Shown: piece after piece, positions 3,977-56,208 of the stretch | Position numbering within the stretch: the first letter of the stretch is position 1 | How the letters are laid out: each line of letters opens with the position of its first letter | Virus record (IMG/VR): IMGVR_UViG_3300017714_002439 | Strand: one strand, 5' to 3' | From: a virus | DNA length: 64,000 nucleotides | Notes under the pieces: model-generated | Told to the model about the DNA's origin: nothing | The model's input: only the letters and a program-made list of their open reading frames with translations | Databases searched by the model: none | Translations under genes and position numbers: made by a program

Positions 3977-4846
3977 ATGAATTTTCCATCGTTAGATAAA
4001 GGAACTATAACTAGTTTTAAAAAATCAATCGATGCAACGTTTAGAGAATTTGCGGCAAATTGGGGAGAGTGGTTTACAGACTTGCTCTCCCCATTACAAT
4101 GGCTACTAATACATTTTGAAAAACTACTATTGTCTACACCTTGGTGGGTGTTTTTAATTATAGTAAGTCTGTTAATATGGAAAGCAACAACAAATTGGAA
4201 ACTTATTATAGGTTTCCTTACTAGTTTTATAGCAATTGGATTAGTTGGCATGTGGAACGACACAATGCAAACACTAGCAATTGTTATTGTATCTACTCTT
4301 GTTTGTATTATAATTGGTATACCTACTGGTATATTAATGGCAAAAAACAAAACAGTAGAAAGAATTATAACACCAATCTTAGACTTAATGCAAACTATTC
4401 CAAGTTTTGTATATCTAATTCCAGTAGTAATGTTATTTGGATTAGGCAAGGTTCCAGGATTAATAGCAATAGTTGTATTTGCTATTCCACCTGTGATTAG
4501 ATTTACAAACATTGGATTAAAACAAGTAGATAAACATTTAGTAGAAACAGCACATGCATTAGGATTAAAACCAAAGCATGTATTAGCTCTTATTGAATTA
4601 CCACTAGCACGTAATGTTATATTAGGTGGAGTAAATCAAACAGTTATGATGGCACTAGCAATGGTAGTAATTGCAAGTATGATTGGAGTGCGTGGATTAG
4701 GATCACAAGTAATGAACTCAATAGGCAATGGATACTTAGGCCTAGGAGTTATAAGTGGATTAAGTATTGTTGCACTAGCAATTATTATAGATAGAGTTAT
4801 ACAATCACACAATAAAAAATATGACAAATGGCGTGATTATAAATAA
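3977..4846 (+). CDS. proW: Glycine betaine/proline ABC transporter permease
   Basis: PILDLMQTIPSFVYLIPVVMLFGLG and an EAA-like loop (LVETAHALG); ALAMVVIASMIG. Confidence 0.9.
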   Translation: MNFPSLDKGTITSFKKSIDATFREFAANWGEWFTDLLSPLQWLLIHFEKLLLSTPWWVFLIIVSLLIWKATTNWKLIIGFLTSFIAIGLVGMWNDTMQTLAIVIVSTLVCIIIGIPTGILMAKNKTVERIITPILDLMQTIPSFVYLIPVVMLFGLGKVPGLIAIVVFAIPPVIRFTNIGLKQVDKHLVETAHALGLKPKHVLALIELPLARNVILGGVNQTVMMALAMVVIASMIGVRGLGSQVMNSIGNGYLGLGVISGLSIVALAIIIDRVIQSHNKKYDKWRDYK

Positions 4847-30597: not shown

Positions 30598-30846
30598 ATG
30601 TTACATACTGTAGAAGCACTAATAGATAAAATTAAAGTAATGCACGATAAAGCAATTATACTACACAGGCTTCGAAACCAGTATTCAGAATCTGCAGATA
30701 AAACATACGATAAAAAACAGTGCCAATTAATAATTGATGATATACAGGCACTAGCACTTCTTATTGCTAACGATAAGCAAGGAACTGAAATTAAAACAGA
30801 GATGGAATATAAGAAGTTTATAAAGGATCAAATAGATGAGAATTGA
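30598..30846 (+). CDS. Hypothetical protein
   Basis: GGAGG RBS; coupled to both neighbours. Confidence 0.65.
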
Positions 30847-31972
30847 AGAAGATCAAAAATTAGATTACAGTGACGTGCTTATTCGTCCTAAACGTAGCAC
30901 ATTAGGTTCACGCAAAGAAGTAGACTTGGAACGTGGATTTACATTTCGTAATACCGCATCACCAAAACATGAAAATAATCGACACTATCGTGGCGTTCCA
31001 CTTATGGCAAGTAACATGGACGGTGTTGGAACATTTGAAATGGCAGATGAATTAGCAAGTCAAAAGATTATGACTTGTTTGGTTAAAACTTATAGTGTAG
31101 AACATTTAGCGGCATACTTTGGAACAGATAGTAAAGAACGCAGAGATTATGTAGCAATGAGTATTGGCATTACAGACAAAGATGCTGATAAATTTTCTCA
31201 AGTATATGAACAAGCAAGTAAAGGTTTAAAGTATGTATGCATTGATGTAGCTAACGGATACAGTGAAAGATTTGGTAATTTTGTGAGAAAGTTTAGAAAA
31301 CAATATCCAAATACAGTAATTATAGCAGGTAATGTAGTTACCGGAGAAATGACAGAGGAGTTAATTTTAAATGGAGCAGATATTGTTAAAGTGGGTATTG
31401 GTCCCGGGTCTGTTTGCACTACTAGGATACAAACTGGTGTGGGATATCCGCAGTTATCGGCGGTCATCGAATGTGCCGACGCAGCACACGGACTTGGTGG
31501 TCACGTCATTGCTGATGGTGGGTGCAGTTGCCCTGGAGATATCGCTAAAGCCTTTGCCGGAGGGGCAGATTTTGTTATGCTTGGTGGCATGCTTGCTGGC
31601 CATGATGAAGGCGGCGGGGAAATTGTAACAAAACATATTGCCACAGGCGGAGCATATAAAACACCCGAAGGAACATTTATTCCTTATTTTGAAGAACAAA
31701 ATTTTATAGCATTTTATGGCATGAGTTCAGATGCGGCTAACACAAAACACTTTGGTGGATTAAAAGATTATCGTGCAAGTGAAGGTCGTGAAGTATTAGT
31801 GCCCTATCGTGGAGTAGTTGCAAATACAATACAAACTATATTAGGTGGAGTTAGAAGTTCTTGCACCTATGCTGGTGCTAAACGATTAAAACATCTTATG
31901 CGTTGTGCAACTTTTGTAAAAGTTAATAATCAGTTTAATCGCACCTATGAGAATACCACAACTAAATCGTAA
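30836..31972 (+). CDS. guaC: GMP reductase
   Basis: [44 protein letters not shown] and YRASEG motifs. Confidence 0.95.
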
Positions 31973-32049
31973 AGAGCTATGCATTTTAAACATAGCGTCT
32001 TTGCAAACAATAAGTAGGTGTTTTACGGTTATCATTGATAAATAAAAGT

Positions 32050-32270
32050 GTATTAGAAATAACACACCGTTGTGTTATTATTTACATATACAACGTAGTA
32101 TAGAGCGACCTCGGCTCAGAAAAAAAGAGCGGCAGTTAGTGCCACGCTAACTGACTCTGGGAAAGACCAGGGCATAACCCATGCCTTACAAGCGATACAT
32201 TATGAGGTATCGTGGTAGCGGCCAGGAGAGACTGGCAAACAACGGATGCTTTCCCAAAAACATCCCATAT
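32050..32270 (+). ncRNA. Candidate multi-hairpin structured RNA or long leader
   Basis: After TAAATA (32039-44), at least seven hairpins read directly from the sequence; GC-rich; no plausible ORF. Confidence 0.6.
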
Positions 32271-32292
32271 ATAACTTATTAAGGAGAATCCA

Positions 32293-32481
32293 ATGACCAA
32301 TTTTTTTGGTGCATGGGCAGAGCTCTTCAACGGCACACGTAGAACTCGTGTGAAATATGAGGCTGATCTGCTTACCTATGCAAAAACAGAATATACAAAA
32401 GACTGGCAGTATGCATACCAGTATATGTTAACACACGATGGCAAAGGGCCACACCAATATAGAGGTGACTACAGCAAATGA
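32293..32481 (+). CDS. Small hypothetical protein
   Basis: AAGGAG RBS; LLTYAKTEY..DWQYAY motif. Confidence 0.7.
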   Translation: MTNFFGAWAELFNGTRRTRVKYEADLLTYAKTEYTKDWQYAYQYMLTHDGKGPHQYRGDYSK

Positions 32482-32648
32482 TTAAAAGATTACTTAAGAT
32501 GGCAAGATTGTCAACACTAACAAAAGAAGAAAAATACTTAGCTAGTTCATGTGACTTAGTTGAGCTTGAAAGACGTCAAAGAGAATTGCAAAAAGGGTCT
32601 GCTCCATGGCAGGCAGTTGCAAACAAGAATTTAAGAGGATGGGTATAA
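32478..32648 (+). CDS. DUF3563-like small protein (56 aa), not in the ORF track
   Basis: EKYLASSCDLVELERRQREL resembles the family pattern; ATGA and TAATG coupling on both sides. Confidence 0.65.
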   Translation: MIKRLLKMARLSTLTKEEKYLASSCDLVELERRQRELQKGSAPWQAVANKNLRGWV

Positions 32649-32854
32649 TGACTACATTAACACACAAAACATGGGACCTAACATGTGGAGTATGTGTAGC
32701 AATCCGTAATGTATTAATTGCATTTTGGGTTGGTTGCATCGCAATGGGCGAATCAGCCGGTAGAGCAAGAGCCGCCGCTGAATTACACAGACAAGGTTAC
32801 ACAAAAGAAGCAAAAAAATTAATGACTGGGAGATATATAGATGAAGATTATTAG
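32648..32854 (+). CDS. Small hypothetical protein
   Basis: Start trimmed to MTTLTHK (TAATG coupling); GESAGRARAAAEL motif. Confidence 0.65.
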   Translation: MTTLTHKTWDLTCGVCVAIRNVLIAFWVGCIAMGESAGRARAAAELHRQGYTKEAKKLMTGRYIDEDY

Positions 32855-33023
32855 AGCATTTAAAAATTTCCTAAGAACAGATGAAACAGTTTGTATGAAA
32901 ACATACAATCAGTTACATAACATGACAGACCGTGATTTACAAGATATAGGAATATGCAGAGGAGATATCAAACGAGTGGCCAGCTCAAAACCTGATACTT
33001 TTGAACGTAGATCTAGATTTTAG
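32841..33023 (+). CDS. DUF1127 (YjiS-like) small protein
   Basis: QLHNMTDRDLQDIGICRGDI matches the L..L.D..L.DIG..R.DI signature. Confidence 0.8.
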   Translation: MKIIRAFKNFLRTDETVCMKTYNQLHNMTDRDLQDIGICRGDIKRVASSKPDTFERRSRF

Positions 33024-33059
33024 ATAATTACAAACATGGAATGCTTATAGTATTCCTGC

Positions 33060-33126
33060 AAAACCGCTTACAAGCATTCGTTGGAGCCGATATTTACTGT
33101 GCCCAAGTTGTTTGAAGCGGTTTTTT
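33060..33126 (+). terminator. Long hairpin or intrinsic terminator closing the small-protein operon
   Basis: AAAACCGCTT...AAGCGGTTTT 10-bp stem with internal pairing, followed by a T run. Confidence 0.6.
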
Positions 33127-33148
33127 ATTATATGTAGTTTTAATTGGC

Positions 33149-33159
33149 TAAATACTATT
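33149..33159 (+). promoter_or_regulatory. TAAATA-N5 leaderless late promoter
   Basis: TAAATA ctatt ATG(33160). Confidence 0.6.
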
Positions 33160-34128
33160 ATGAGTAAAGTCAATCTAATACCACAGTTAATTTCAAAACT
33201 ATCTGAAGCAACTTCGCAAGAACAAAAGTATAAGATAGTAAAGAAGTATGAAAAAGAAACACTTTTTAAGCGTATTCTTTTATTTTCATACAATCCTTGG
33301 ATAAATTTTAAATTACAACACTTTGTTCCAAAACATATGGGTAAAAAGTTTGGTATGGGTATGAGTAGATTTATGCATATGTTTGAAGAAATTATTGCTG
33401 GAAAACTAGATCCCAAAGATGCAGAGTTTGGATTTAATATGGCATTTTTACATGTTAATACAGAAGAAGCACCTATTTTGTTAGGTATAATCAATCAATC
33501 ATTAGATGTTGGATTAGAAATAGAAACAATTAATAGAGTTTGGCCAAACTCTATATCAGACTATCCATTACGAACAGCTAAAGCAGGAAAACATAAAGAC
33601 TTTACTAACTTTCCAGCATCTATACAAACAGTAAGTAAAGGTTTACGAGTTAATATTATTGTTACAGATAACACAGTTCAATATAGACAAAAAGATGGAA
33701 CTGTAATAGAAGGTTGGGATTGTTGGAATGAACAATTTCTTAATTTAGCACAAGGGCAAGGAACCGTGTTTGACGGGCATGCCGTAATTGCAGAAAACAA
33801 TAAAATAGCAGAAACAGACAATACTAAAGTATTAGAATCTGATGCAGAAAATATTAGATTTATATTTTGGGATGTAATACGTTATGATGGATTTATTTCC
33901 GGAAAAGATACTCGTATAGGTTATAACTGGCGTTACAATGGACTTGAGCATATGATGATGTTAGCATATGCTAAAAACCCAAAACCATGTTATGATATAT
34001 TAAAAGCAGAATTAGTAGGATCACAAGAACAGCTAGATACAGCAATAAAGAATTACAGCAAGGCAGTTATTAGATCTTTAGATGATACATGGAGTAATGG
34101 TGAAAGTGATGGTGAAATTATTTGCTAG
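33160..34128 (+). CDS. ATP-dependent DNA ligase paralogue (T4 gp30-like N-terminal and adenylation domains), predicted inactive
   Basis: INRVWP, FPASIQTVSKGLR (compare FPAFAQLKADGAR), FDGHAV and FWDVI; no OB domain. Confidence 0.7.
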   Translation: MSKVNLIPQLISKLSEATSQEQKYKIVKKYEKETLFKRILLFSYNPWINFKLQHFVPKHMGKKFGMGMSRFMHMFEEIIAGKLDPKDAEFGFNMAFLHVNTEEAPILLGIINQSLDVGLEIETINRVWPNSISDYPLRTAKAGKHKDFTNFPASIQTVSKGLRVNIIVTDNTVQYRQKDGTVIEGWDCWNEQFLNLAQGQGTVFDGHAVIAENNKIAETDNTKVLESDAENIRFIFWDVIRYDGFISGKDTRIGYNWRYNGLEHMMMLAYAKNPKPCYDILKAELVGSQEQLDTAIKNYSKAVIRSLDDTWSNGESDGEIIC

Positions 34129-34444
34129 AAGTAGGTGGGCTTATAATTTGTTCTAGTCTATGGTTTTGTATTTTAGTATTTTTAATATAACGCCATACTT
34201 TACCACGACCATTGTCAATTTCAAATGTAGTTTCTGAATAGCCTATACTAATAATAGTAGCACGTTCTCCATCTAAGTATACTACATCACCTGGCTCAAA
34301 TCCAGGTTTCATTTTCCAGCGTATACTAGCTACTAAATCTCCTACAAGTTCTTTGAACCATAGAGCAATTACACCTGATATAAGCAATGCTAATGCAGGT
34401 GTTAGGTATGTTGTAATGCTTTGTTCTACTATAGCGGTATCCAT
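34118..34444 (-). CDS. Small membrane protein with MscS beta-domain-like segment
   Basis: One TM helix followed by FEPGDVVYLDG..IISIG..T..IKN. Confidence 0.55.
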   Translation of the reverse strand: MDTAIVEQSITTYLTPALALLISGVIALWFKELVGDLVASIRWKMKPGFEPGDVVYLDGERATIISIGYSETTFEIDNGRGKVWRYIKNTKIQNHRLEQIISPPTSSK

Positions 34445-41466: not shown

Positions 41467-41615
41467 GAGGCAACATGCAACATCCTAATACCATAATATT
41501 AACTAAAAGTAGTATTTTTGGCCTAGCACTAACAGGTCTAATGATTTGTCTAAATATTTACTTTTTCTTTTAAACATAGGTTGACTTTTATACATTTTCG
41601 TGTATAAATAATATT

Positions 41616-41866
41616 GTTAACGTTGAAGCAACGTGGACACATACTGGACCTCGGGGCAGTACCGAGCAGCTCCACCATAAACACATTGCACAGTTAGTGT
41701 GCTTATGATGGGGCTGAAATAGGATCGACGGGTGTGAGAAGTGAAGTGGAGTTAACCGGTTGAGTGCGTTATTGCTCAAAATTCATAATTGCAAACGATA
41801 ATTATGCGCCAGAGATGGCATTAGCGGCGTAAAGCCACTATGAGGTAGCTATACCTTATCACCCAA
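41616..41866 (+). ncRNA. ssrA: Circularly permuted (two-piece) tmRNA; tag ANDNYAPEMALAA
   Basis: Acceptor piece ends CTCGG-GGCAGTA-CCGAG-CAGCTCCACCA (41677); 32-nt intervening segment; coding piece starts GGGGCTG (41710) giving G3:U70; tag frame 41791-41832. Outer ends are approximate. Confidence 0.92.
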
Positions 41867-41876
41867 AATAGTATGG

Positions 41877-41905
41877 AAAAAGGTCGCCTAGTGCGGCCTT
41901 TTTTT
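41877..41905 (+). terminator. Intrinsic terminator after tmRNA
   Basis: AAAAAGGTCGC-ctagt-GCGGCC followed by TTTTTTT. Confidence 0.8.
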
Positions 41906-41912
41906 GTGACTA

Positions 41913-41923
41913 TAAATACTAGC
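41913..41923 (+). promoter_or_regulatory. TAAATA-N5 leaderless late promoter
   Basis: TATAAATA ctagc ATG(41924). Confidence 0.7.
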
Positions 41924-44036: not shown

Positions 44037-44111
44037 ATGGGTGTGGTGCTAATGGTAACATAGCGGTCTCCAAAACCGAAGACGAGGGTTCGATTCCTTC
44101 CACCTATGCCA
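44037..44111 (+). tRNA. tRNA-Trp(CCA)
   Basis: Acceptor ATGGGTG/CACCTAT, G73, anticodon loop CTCCAAA, TTCGATT T-loop, encoded CCA. Confidence 0.93.
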
Positions 44112-47294: not shown

Positions 47295-47378
47295 GCGTCT
47301 ATGGTGGAATAGGTAGACACGACAGACTTAAAATCTGTTGCTTATGGCGTCCCGGTTCGAGTCCGGGTAGACGCACCA
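47295..47378 (+). tRNA. tRNA-Leu(UAA)
   Basis: 84 nt with long variable arm; GCGTCTA/TAGACGC acceptor, ACAGA-CTTAAAA-TCTGT anticodon arm, CCA. Confidence 0.96.
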
Positions 47379-53242: not shown

Positions 53243-53906
53243 TCCTTGGGATGTCCTAGGCATCCAGCCAGATTCAAATCTCAAAGAAGTTAAGCAAGCA
53301 TATAAAAATCTTTCTATGCTACATCACCCAGATAAAGGTGGTAAAGTTACAGACTGGTTAGCAATAGCAGATGCATACGAAACTATTAAGACAAACAAGT
53401 ATGTTCCCATACTACCATCAACTAGCACACAATTGTTAAATTTAACTCTTAGTTTAAAACAACAAATTTTAGGAATTGATGATCTTGTTGCAATTGATGA
53501 TGGCAATGAAGAAATATACATGCAAGTTAAAATAAGACCTGGAGCAGTTTCAGGAGATAAAATACAAGTAGTTAAAGATAAAAAGAAATACATAATAAAT
53601 ATTAAAGATAAAGCACATTCGGTCTTTACAAGACAAGGTTCTTCGCTTATAATGTATAAAAAGATATCAGTAATAAATGCATTAAAAAGAACACCAATGT
53701 TAATTGAAGGACCAACAGAAGAGTTTATTGAAGTAGAATTACCTAAAGAAATACAAACTGGAACAATCCTAACATTACCAAATCATGGATTATATGATAA
53801 AAACAAAAGAAAGCGTGGAAATTTGAAAATACATTTAAATGTTGAACTACCAACTCTCACTGATGATAATATTAACGATTTTATAAAAAGGTTAAAAGAT
53901 GACTGA
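53223..53906 (+). CDS. DnaJ/CbpA-like co-chaperone
   Basis: J domain with HPD (LHHPDKGG) and a C-terminal DnaJ_C-like region (VFTRQGSSL, RGNL.I). Confidence 0.85.
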   Translation: MKKKQSNPWDVLGIQPDSNLKEVKQAYKNLSMLHHPDKGGKVTDWLAIADAYETIKTNKYVPILPSTSTQLLNLTLSLKQQILGIDDLVAIDDGNEEIYMQVKIRPGAVSGDKIQVVKDKKKYIINIKDKAHSVFTRQGSSLIMYKKISVINALKRTPMLIEGPTEEFIEVELPKEIQTGTILTLPNHGLYDKNKRKRGNLKIHLNVELPTLTDDNINDFIKRLKDD

Positions 53907-56208
53907 TATTGAAAAAATTATTATTACTGCAATTGATTTAGCAAAACGTTTCAAGCATGAATACGTAACCATTGAGCATCTTACAGCCGTTATTTTAGAT
54001 GATGAAGAAGTTAGAAGCATGTGCTTTGATATTAATGCAGATTTTGAAGGCATTCAAGTTGCACTTATACATTACCTACAACATAGTTGTGATGAGATTA
54101 CAGGTGCAAAAGATGTAGAACCAGAGCCTAAAAAGACACAAATGTTAGAGCGTGTTTTTAATCGTGCGTTGACACAAGCATTATTTCAAGGTAAGAAAGC
54201 TATTGATCAGTTAGACTTAGTATTAAGTATACTAGGTGAAGATAAAAGCACAAGTTGTTTTTTCTCTCAAAGCCTAGGATTAACAAAATCAAAAGTATTA
54301 GCATGGATGCAAGAAAGTTATGCAGAAAACTTTAAAAGTAGTTACGATCAACAACAAGCATACGAAGAAGCATATCGTCAGCATCATAGAAAAAATCAAA
54401 TGGGACCACAAACACATATCGAAGTGTTACAACAATTTTGTAATAACTTATGTGAGAAGCATGCAGATTTTGAAGATGTAATTGGTCGTAGAGAAGAATT
54501 AAAAGATCTTGTGCAAACAATTGCACGTAAGAAAAAATCAAATGCTATTTTAGTAGGACCAAGTGGTGTTGGTAAAACAGCCATTGTTCAAGGACTAGCA
54601 AAACTTATTGTAGAAGGACATGTTCCTGAAATTATTAAAGGAACTACAGTTTGGGAACTTGATATGACCAAACTAATTGCAGGCACAAAATACAGAGGTG
54701 ATTTTGAAGAACGTATGAAACAATTAAGTGAAGCATTGCAAAAGCTAGATAACATTGTTTTATTCATTGATGAAATACACACAGTAATTGGTGCAGGTAG
54801 CACAAGTGGAAGTATGGATGCAGGTAATATGTTAAAGCCAGCACTTAGCAATGGTAAACTAAAAGTTATTGGTGCGACTACAGATGAAGAATATAGAAAA
54901 GTATTTGAAAAAGAAAGTGCATTAGCACGTAGATTTACAAAGTTAAATGTAATTGAACCAACAGTTCAAGAAGCAAAAGAAGTAGTGCGTAATACATTAG
55001 ATCATTACGAAGCATTCCATGAAGTAGATATTGATATTGCATCAGCAGATTTAGCCGTAGAGTTATCAGCACAGTATATCTTTAACAAGAAGCTCCCTGA
55101 TAAAGCGTTTGATATTATTGATAGAGCATGTGCATTTAACAGAATCCTACCAGAAGAAGAACGTGTAACAACTATTGGTATAGAAGAAATACGCAGCGAA
55201 GTAGGTAGATTAACAGGAATACCAAAAGAACATTTAGGCACAGCAGTAGAAGAACAATCAATTAAAAAACACACAGAAGTAAAATCATTTTTAGAAAATA
55301 CAGTATTTGGTCAGGCACAAGCAATAGAAAAAGTATCAAATGCAATTACAGTAAGTTTAGCAGGATTGAAAGATCCTAATAAACCTGTTGCTAGTTATTT
55401 GTTTACAGGGCCAACAGGTGTTGGGAAAACAGAACTTGCTACACGTTTAGCACAAGCAATGGGCATGAAACTGGTTCGTTATGATATGGCAGAATACCAA
55501 GAACGTCATAGTGTATCAAAACTTATCGGCTCACCTCCAGGTTATGTAGGACACGGAGATGGTAAAGCAGGCGATGGACTATTAATTACACACTTAGAAG
55601 ATAATCCAAATTGTGTATTACTACTAGACGAAGTAGAAAAAGCACACCCTGATATTATGAGTGTTATGCTAAGTTTATTAGATGAAGGTGTAATCACATC
55701 AAGCACAGGTAAAAAAGTCAGTGCAAAAAATGCCATTATTATAATGACAAGTAATCTAGGAGCAAGAGATGCCGCAATTAAGAGCATCGGATTTAACGAA
55801 GAAACATACAACGATAGTGCGGTAACAGAAGCTATTAATAACTTCTTTGCACCAGAGTTTAGAAATAGACTTGATGGTGTTATAAGATTTAATCCATTAC
55901 AGCCTGAAAATATGCAACGTATTGTTATAAAATTCTTAAGACAATTAGAAGGATATGTTGAGGGCAGACACATTAAAATTCATTGGAATAAGAACTTATT
56001 AAGCATGTTGCAAGATAAAGGATATAGTCCTACTATGGGTGCTCGTCCACTTGCACGTTTAATAAATGAAACAGTTAAATTACCATTGGCATCATATATG
56101 ATGGAAAATACAAACGTCAAAGAAATTGACATATCATATGATGCTAAAAAAGACACAGTCAATATTCTGCCAGCCAAACGGGTTATGGTAGATGAACAGC
56201 CAGCATAG
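53899..56208 (+). CDS. clpA: ATP-dependent Clp protease ATP-binding subunit ClpA
   Basis: HEYVTIEHL, two Walker A motifs (GPSGVGKT, GPTGVGKT), FIDEIH, LLDEVEKAH, IGF loop and GARPLAR. Confidence 0.95.
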   Translation: MTDIEKIIITAIDLAKRFKHEYVTIEHLTAVILDDEEVRSMCFDINADFEGIQVALIHYLQHSCDEITGAKDVEPEPKKTQMLERVFNRALTQALFQGKKAIDQLDLVLSILGEDKSTSCFFSQSLGLTKSKVLAWMQESYAENFKSSYDQQQAYEEAYRQHHRKNQMGPQTHIEVLQQFCNNLCEKHADFEDVIGRREELKDLVQTIARKKKSNAILVGPSGVGKTAIVQGLAKLIVEGHVPEIIKGTTVWELDMTKLIAGTKYRGDFEERMKQLSEALQKLDNIVLFIDEIHTVIGAGSTSGSMDAGNMLKPALSNGKLKVIGATTDEEYRKVFEKESALARRFTKLNVIEPTVQEAKEVVRNTLDHYEAFHEVDIDIASADLAVELSAQYIFNKKLPDKAFDIIDRACAFNRILPEEERVTTIGIEEIRSEVGRLTGIPKEHLGTAVEEQSIKKHTEVKSFLENTVFGQAQAIEKVSNAITVSLAGLKDPNKPVASYLFTGPTGVGKTELATRLAQAMGMKLVRYDMAEYQERHSVSKLIGSPPGYVGHGDGKAGDGLLITHLEDNPNCVLLLDEVEKAHPDIMSVMLSLLDEGVITSSTGKKVSAKNAIIIMTSNLGARDAAIKSIGFNEETYNDSAVTEAINNFFAPEFRNRLDGVIRFNPLQPENMQRIVIKFLRQLEGYVEGRHIKIHWNKNLLSMLQDKGYSPTMGARPLARLINETVKLPLASYMMENTNVKEIDISYDAKKDTVNILPAKRVMVDEQPA

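Follow-up and report, generated by a model that had tools for sequence, protein, structure and literature searches.

A long 5' leader of a late phage mRNA belongs to a modular family of structured RNAs linked to small-protein cassettes

The IMG/VR viral record IMGVR_UViG_3300017714_002439, analyzed here as a stretch of 64,000 nucleotides (the window, to which all coordinates refer), contains about 240 non-coding nucleotides with serial hairpins and, directly behind them, four overlapping small open reading frames (ORFs). This leader and cassette lie between the GMP reductase gene guaC (30836-31972) and an ATP-dependent DNA-ligase-like gene (33160-34128), and the locus raises the question of whether the hairpins form a genuine RNA element and, if so, what that element does for the small genes. 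Our analysis showed that the 5' leader of a late phage mRNA occupies 243 nt of the plus strand (32050-32292) and is one member of a modular family of structured RNAs, so far uncatalogued, in uncultured marine phages.

The transcript was examined in six RNA libraries from at least four studies that contain the stretch; the contigs of four libraries were aligned to positions 31000-34200, and these data are assembled contigs, which by themselves show neither RNA ends nor RNA levels. Contigs from three studies start at 32049/32050, and the contig of the oligo-dT SMART-type library X18 carries ...GCAGAGTACGGG immediately 5' of 32050, which we take to be the template-switch oligo that marks the RNA 5' end. 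Transcription thus starts at 32050 (±1 nt) on the plus strand. A T4-type late-promoter-like box, GATAAATA, is located at 32037-32044, and the RNA 5' end falls six bases past this TATAAATA-like box, a spacing that gives the geometry of a T4-type late promoter. The promoter box was also present upstream of 87 of 115 related leaders. Across the window, NATAAATA boxes were found 29 times on the plus (gene) strand versus 5 times on the minus strand, mostly 15-50 nt before a Shine-Dalgarno (SD) sequence and ATG (for example, at 4838, 34463, 36085, 44117, 57271, and 61530). Judging from the sequence, the phage probably uses a gp55-type late transcription system. Since the other boxes are only 15-50 nt from the ATG, a leader of 243 nt is exceptionally long for this phage.

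The RNA contigs, which span 32050-32806, 32050-32642, 32210-32981, and 32627-33080, cover the leader and the ORFs continuously. Together they tile 32050-33080, beyond the stop codon of the fourth ORF at 33023, with no single contig covering both ends. Because contigs run from the leader into the ORFs, the two are co-transcribed, as the preliminary description of the locus had supposed. Contig depth was 10-140 in the cassette versus 0-3 in the flanking guaC and ligase genes, which argues against carry-over of DNA and for very high expression. A long hairpin followed by a U-run at 33060-33126 on the plus strand (-34.9 kcal/mol; z = -5.0) is likely the terminator of the cassette transcript; the contigs end at 32981-33080, and past there the depth is approximately 0-5.

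All eight hairpins that had been proposed for this leader were found in the sequence at their positions. The plus strand of 32039-32292 folds at -73.5 kcal/mol versus a shuffle mean of -51.7 (z = -4.9; none of 200 shuffles was as good), the G+C content reaches 51-52% over 32100-32250 versus approximately 33% for the genome, and the leader core is about 97% identical among relatives whose flanks are 84-88% identical, one compensatory change being included. These folds, together with the rise in G+C content and the conservation of the core, place the hairpins beyond chance expectation.

The leader opens with a 5'-terminal hairpin, AAUAACAC/GUGUUAUU (32058-32079), a dispensable module that is missing from the relatives L001 and L002 and is replaced by a different 5' hairpin at the same place in other family members. 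This hairpin does not terminate guaC; it forms the 5' end of a transcript beginning at 32050. It is followed by an H-type pseudoknot (32103-32132), in which P1 (32103-32106/32114-32117) and P2 (32109-32112/32127-32131) are joined by an A-rich linker (32118-32126). The GAGC/GCUC pairing of P1 is replaced by AAGC/GCUU in relatives, and P2 has three independent compensatory variants (CUCA/UGAG, UUCA/UGAA, and AUCA/UGAU) in addition to a CACC/GGUG register; the pseudoknot module is present in only part of the family. The next hairpin, Ha (CAGUUAG/CUAACUG; 32133-32153), is specific to the subfamily of the window. Hairpin H1 (32155-32172; CUGG/CCAG stem at 32157-32170) bears the hallmark of the family, a hexaloop, here GAAAGA, closed by a G-C pair. 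H2 (GGCAU/AUGCC; 32171-32185), whose loop ends in YCC, is stacked directly on H1 and is followed by the single-stranded joiner UUACAAG (32186-32192), which is conserved in both main subfamilies. The variable hairpin H3 (32192-32213; CGAUAC/GUAUCG at 32193-32212) precedes the second hallmark hairpin, H4 (GCCAG/CUGGC; 32221-32236), in which GAGAGA is again closed by a G-C pair. The last hairpin, H5 (GGAUG/CAUCC; 32244-32265), bears the pyrimidine tract UGCUUUCC, the sequence of which is kept in all subfamilies despite a differing pairing register. An unpaired A-rich linker then leads to the SD sequence AAGGAG and the ATG of the first ORF (32281-32295).

Other potential features of the leader were considered. 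Positions 32158-32165, in the stem and loop of H1, are a perfect 8-nt complement of 32249-32256 in the loop of H5, and this complementarity is present in 19 of the 21 leaders of the window's subfamily; it could permit an alternative fold or RNA-RNA dimerization. A kissing interaction between the purine loops of H1 or H4 and the pyrimidine tract of H5 had no family-wide support, since the longest complementary run in 115 leaders averaged 5.34 both in the real and in the shuffled pairings (271 of 500 shuffles were as high). Sequestration of the SD sequence by H5 was rejected by inspection, as the tract has the wrong polarity for pairing with AAGGAG. An upstream ORF within the leader (32181-32282; 33 aa) was likewise rejected because its frame is broken by indels of 1-6 nt between close relatives.

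The pairing was examined by covariation in two ways. In the first, hairpins were anchored on the loop pattern alone, with no pairing required. Among the G-NANAGA-C loops in leaders, all three adjacent pairs were Watson-Crick in 49 of 66 unique cases, compared with 7 of 335 in the remaining DNA fetched. The non-Watson-Crick pairs at the hallmark loops comprised 16 G-U/U-G versus 2 C-A, and this excess of G-U over C-A indicates that the RNA strand is the gene (plus) strand. For the second, a covariance model was built from one subfamily. It located the window RNA at 32156-32265 on the plus strand (32.2 bits; E = 2e-5), with no second copy in the window, and in 99 of the 100 sources searched it matched a single site. 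When 87 distinct sequences were aligned to the model, 93.6% of cells paired versus 74.5 ± 0.6% in shuffles, and 20 of 26 pairs changed on both sides; such double changes numbered 335 cells, whereas shuffles gave 85 and sliding the partner no more than 65. Each of the hairpins H1, H2, H3, and H4 is supported by covariation. The H1 stem covaries family-wide (CUGG/CCAG, CCAG/CUGG, AUUG/CAAU, AUAG/CUAU, and others), and H2 has changes on both sides at all 5 pairs, with pairing in 96.3% of cells. H3 shows a compensatory change from U-A to C-G in L003 and others, its homologous helix covarying at all 7 pairs, and H4 covaries at all 4 of its pairs, with pairing in 100% of cells. Plain MAFFT alignments, in which the hairpins were offset by one column, allowed RNAalifold to recover only 8 pairs, and this approach was replaced by the loop-anchored counts and the covariance-model alignment.

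The preliminary description had presented the RNA as undescribed and phage-borne and its linkage to small genes as something to be sought in other genomes; all three points were borne out. An Rfam search over the region returned no match at the gathering score and, at E values up to 10, only chance microRNA and long non-coding RNA rows; five other, diverse family members gave no match at E values up to 1. Fremin et al. (2023; PMC10690425) derived 8,495 unnamed candidate RNAs from IMG/VR, and the motif may be one of them. A search that began with the RNA, using an 18-mer from H1-H2, retrieved 32 viral contigs, 31 of which are true relatives, and a gene of the ORF1 type lay 3' of the RNA in every relative with enough downstream DNA. 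With a 22-mer from H5, at least 120 contigs were retrieved; among the matches listed, the cassette lay behind the RNA in all 111 with enough downstream sequence, the ORF1 product (protein A) coming first in most and a DUF1127 protein with a DUF3563-like tail coming first in six contigs. The reverse search, which began with an alignment of ORF1 homologues, yielded 205 viral loci, and a related leader module was located upstream of all matches inspected. The relatives of the window all come from IMG/VR viral contigs, and the cassette follows the leader across hundreds of loci. In cultured phages (the GenBank/INPHARED set, searched with DNA and protein for the window type and a second subfamily), neither the RNA nor protein A was detected. 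Among 185,579 prokaryote species, the protein search found a single locus, on a 20-kb contig of a Flavobacteriales metagenome-assembled genome (PAND01000020.1), in which the leader is present together with protein A. This is probably a phage contig binned with that genome, and it may provide a host clue for its subfamily.

A common architecture emerged from these relatives. Behind the promoter box comes a variable 5' hairpin; the next module is a CA-rich spacer in some leaders and, in others, an H-type pseudoknot containing an A-rich linker. Then follows H1, whose stem of 4-6 bp carries an NANAGA hexaloop (mostly GAAAGA or GAUAGA) that is always closed by G-C. H2 abuts H1, and the joiner UUACAAG, variable H3, H4, and H5 follow in this order; in H4, the loop is again NANAGA or is replaced by a GGAAGUU variant, and an R-G mismatch is often located two to three pairs lower. 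After H5, approximately 20 unpaired A-rich bases lead to a strong SD sequence and the ATG. The conserved core of this arrangement is an NANAGA hairpin followed each time by a hairpin with a pyrimidine-rich loop. Of 115 unique leaders, 83 have two copies of the hallmark hairpin, 23 have one, 8 have three, and 1 has four; some leaders lack the pseudoknot or H1-H2, and minimal leaders consist of one hairpin and H5 only.

The four coupled ORFs behind the leader of the window are real (32293-32481, 32478-32648, 32648-32854, and 32841-33023, all on the plus strand), and their junctions are ATGA, TAATG, and a 14-nt overlap. ORF1 encodes protein A, a 62-aa member of a phage-only family with the motif AKTEY..DWQYAY, which matched no family in Pfam, PHROG, or NCBIfam and only unnamed clusters in the ESM Atlas. 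The 56-aa product of ORF2 narrowly passed as DUF3563 (PF12086; 28.8 bits versus a gathering threshold of 26.9), and the 60-aa product of ORF4 is a DUF1127 protein (PF06568; 32.9 bits versus 23.3), both as previously proposed. ORF3, for which a start at 32639 is also possible, encodes a 68-aa protein of family C, characterized by a hydrophobic helix and an GESAGRARAAAEL motif, and has no family in Pfam, PHROGs, or NCBIfam. One metatranscriptome contig with less than 95% likeness to the window showed an in-frame skip of 72 nt in ORF2 (32549-32622) and probably represents a strain with a shorter DUF3563 protein.

The composition of the cassette varies among relatives. Within 1.7 kb downstream of 83 leaders, protein A was found at 80 loci, DUF1127 at 61, family C at 52, family E at 33, and DUF3563 at 21, and the cassettes carry many additional small ORFs; the close relatives L001 and L002 have protein A and DUF1127 only. 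The four-gene operon ending in DUF1127, as the locus had originally been characterized, is therefore not the conserved unit; rather, the conserved unit is the leader plus a small-protein cassette. Family E, which is absent from the window, comprises proteins of 44-45 aa (44 aa in the cassette count) with the motif EYRSY...ISEFKHNMY (for example, L007:2207-2341 on the minus strand, L011:12340-12474, and L019:3311-3445) and matched nothing in PHROGs and NCBIfam, the two libraries with which it was compared. In L124, L130, L147, L184, L186, and L229, the first ORF is a chimera of a DUF1127 core and the NLKGWV tail typical of DUF3563 proteins. Homology between DUF1127 and DUF3563, as suggested by the shared tails, was rejected (hhalign probability of 0.1).

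What the fold does we infer from its design and from its gene neighbors. We favor, with some reserve, the reading that the leader is a protein-binding platform that provides feedback control or forms a ribonucleoprotein, and this may be its function. The leader has what marks a protein operator or a sponge-like array, namely loops that stay constant on stems that covary, one fixed closing pair, a mismatch that is conserved, and a copy number that varies, and the presence of one to four hallmark copies resembles arrays of protein sites. The preliminary description had noted the GARAGA loop on two stems and suggested a repeated binding site; the loop proved to be the hallmark of the family and its copy number fits such a site, the binding itself being a matter of interpretation. 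The cassette also encodes a member of DUF1127, the only small-protein family known both to bind RNA and to share transcripts with structured RNAs, and this likewise favors a platform. The RNA binder of that family is CcaF1, and its partner RNAs may be part of the 5' untranslated region (UTR), as in Sinorhizobium (PMC8034643). Repeated constant loops on freely covarying stems would then be binding sites for a protein, most likely a small RNA-binding product of the cassette itself, either the DUF1127 protein or the nearly universal protein A. Through this protein, the leader would feed back on the translation or stability of a very abundant late message; alternatively, it might nucleate a small ribonucleoprotein. 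Control by simple occlusion is unlikely, since all predicted folds leave the ribosome-binding site free.

Several observations weigh against a protein-binding platform. The cassette has no strictly universal protein, DUF1127 being absent from 22 of the 83 loci and protein A from 3. The AlphaFold2 model of protein A is a helical hairpin of modest confidence (predicted local distance difference test score, pLDDT, of 68), and the models of protein A and DUF1127 (pLDDT 68) gave no RNA-binding signal; in the search of PDB folds, which was made with the DUF1127 model, there was no significant match, the Smaug RNA-binding (SAM) domain reaching only E = 7 and TM 0.24. Contact with another protein, PhoR, is a further route by which DUF1127 proteins can act (PMC12501420). 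On the RNA side, H5 never varies in the 87-sequence alignment and so has no covariation there, and that alignment was fitted to the structure of the model, which makes the loop-anchored count the more independent evidence.

A bolder form of the protein-binding reading, which we consider rather unlikely, makes the leader the RNA component of a new phage ribonucleoprotein. In the tandem G-NANAGA-C hairpins, microproteins of the DUF1127 or protein A type would have their first defined recognition element, and the complex, made late and in bulk, would reprogram host RNA turnover or signaling, for instance along the PhoR/phosphate axis, on which bacterial DUF1127 proteins impinge, as a structurally unrelated, phage-adapted counterpart of the CcsR-CcaF1 module.

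The leader might instead be cut off as a stable RNA that acts in trans, as a regulator or as a decoy of host factors, with its pyrimidine loops (UUUCCUC, UAUCC) or purine loops pairing with or sponging putative host targets; we judge this possible, on balance doubtful. CIN1 loci offer a precedent, as CcsR/NfeR RNAs are released from DUF1127 mRNAs and RNAs derived from 5' UTRs are among them (PMC8034643). Conservation of the H5 tract sequence even where its pairing differs would suit such an RNA, as would a number of hairpin modules that varies as in sponge RNAs. In run X16, the depth was 120 over the core (32102-32239) versus 32 downstream; however, strains that share the invariant core collapse there, leaving loose ends at 32082 and 32265, and the excess was therefore not used as evidence of a processed RNA. 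Contigs, moreover, cannot reveal RNA ends, and no terminator or U-run is located between H5 and the ribosome-binding site.

It is also conceivable, and in our judgment unlikely, that the leader has no specific ligand and is a 5' UTR that stabilizes the message and boosts its translation, with a 5' hairpin and compact folds that block RNases dependent on the 5' end and with purine loops and the A-rich linker as ribosome standby sites; the small proteins would thereby be assured of very high expression late in infection. The expression of the cassette far above its neighbors in metatranscriptomes is consistent with this, as are the strength of the SD sequence, the lack of pairing in the A-rich linker, and the position of the 5'-terminal hairpin, only 8 nt behind the start. 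Protection leaves unexplained, however, why the hexaloops, the joiner, and the pyrimidine tract are invariant across subfamilies with diverged stems, and the other late genes of the same phage need leaders of only 15-50 nt.

A riboswitch for a small molecule or ion is improbable. The long conserved 5' UTR with a pseudoknot and invariant junction nucleotides, adjoining the nucleotide-metabolism gene guaC in the window, would be in keeping with one, but no curated aptamer class in Rfam matches even at E values up to 10, and a modular design in which one to four hallmark hairpins occur and minimal members retain one hairpin and H5 provides no single conserved pocket. Nor is there an expression platform, as no terminator precedes the SD sequence, which is unpaired and has no sequestering helix, and the downstream genes encode tiny proteins, neither transporters nor enzymes. 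Expression of the hairpins from the minus strand, as an antisense small RNA ending in a hairpin and U7 (32145-32120), or their role as mere guaC terminators, is very improbable: the terminator scan does list hairpins with U-runs at 32145-32129 and 32153-32133, but the 16 to 2 ratio of G-U to C-A pairs, a fold z-score of -4.9 on the plus strand versus only -2.5 on the minus strand, the RNA 5' end with its template-switch oligo, which fits a plus-strand transcript from the NATAAATA box, and a module orientation that always matches the cassette all speak for the plus strand. A Type III toxin-antitoxin system with ToxI-like repeats was rejected by inspection, as the stem sequences differ among units and the downstream proteins are 44-76 aa long, with no ToxN-like gene.

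The rest of the window, with a G+C content of approximately 33%, contains genes including those for tail-fibre, radical-SAM, and ClpA/Lon-like proteins, and among cultured phages it is closest to jumbo phages such as Agrobacterium phage Atu_ph07 (41% protein identity). The closest cultured relatives of the ClpA/Lon-like ATP-dependent protease (769 aa; 53899-56208) are in the jumbo phages Agrobacterium Atu_ph07 and Sinorhizobium Phosso, with 41-42% identity. Four transfer RNA genes are present (Thr-TGT, 280-355; Ala-TGC, 468-543; Trp-CCA, 44037-44111; and Leu-TAA, 47295-47378). A permuted transfer-messenger RNA gene of the alpha type (41564-41923) encodes the tag peptide ANDNYAPEMALAA and is flanked by TATAAATA boxes at 41603 and 41911; an RNA of this type in a phage-like contig is a hint that the host may be an alphaproteobacterium.

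There are tens of thousands of DUF1127 proteins, yet the debate continues over whether their targets are RNA or proteins such as PhoR. The family described here offers a compact natural system for this question: behind one sharply defined repeated hairpin, a concrete RNA element, lie genes of DUF1127 and of four further microprotein families. It also adds, for marine phages without a cultured member, a family of structured RNAs that is widespread and strongly expressed, and, for one such phage, a late-promoter start site mapped from public metatranscriptomes. If the hairpin is a true protein operator, it could serve as a small orthogonal RNA tag.

Several known systems resemble the leader in part. 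Like the leaders of T4 gene 32 and of ribosomal-protein messages, it is long and structured, partly with a 5' pseudoknot, and passes into an unstructured A/U-rich stretch and an SD sequence; the T4 gene 32 leader, too, belongs to a phage message, one for an abundant nucleic-acid-binding protein. The leader shares no sequence or structural homology with these and the genes regulated are different, so that autoregulation of the cassette would be a parallel by analogy. The CsrB/RsmZ sponges and CsrA-regulated leaders are similar in their variable number of hairpins with one conserved loop motif, and a GGA is often located at the stem-loop junction. Conservation here does not center on the ANGGAN hexaloop that defines CsrA/RsmA-binding RNAs, which only 9 hairpins in the 115 leaders display, and several hallmark loops have no GGA (AAAAGA after U or A, and CAAAGA). 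Lambda boxB with its N protein, the MS2/PP7 coat-protein operators, and the Smaug/Vts1 hairpin consist of short covarying stems under a constant loop with a fixed closing pair, and they can be repeated in tandem. The phage hairpins share with them the freely covarying short stems, the constant loop, and the fixed closing pair, whereas the sequence and size of the loop (the hexaloop NANAGA) differ and the cognate protein is a presumed one.

The closest known system is the CIN1 locus, with its cuckoo/CcsR/NfeR RNAs (Rfam ar14 and relatives) and CcaF1. As in CIN1 (PMC8034643), structured hairpin RNAs and a small arginine-rich DUF1127 gene, here at 32841-33023, belong to the same transcript, and, as in Sinorhizobium, the RNA lies in the 5' UTR; the two also have in common RNA modules in variable copy number and pyrimidine-rich hairpin loops. 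The analogy to Rhodobacter drawn in the preliminary description thus applies to the layout of the locus and does not extend to the RNA itself, and the leader is not a member of the cuckoo family: the CCUCCUCCC anti-SD loop motif is missing, CCUCCUCC occurs in none of the 115 unique leaders, and there is no match to Rfam ar14 or its relatives. Unlike CIN1, the phage cassette begins with protein A rather than DUF1127, which is missing from about a quarter of the cassettes, and its leader, with a purine-rich NANAGA as the hallmark loop, is phage-borne and driven by a late promoter.

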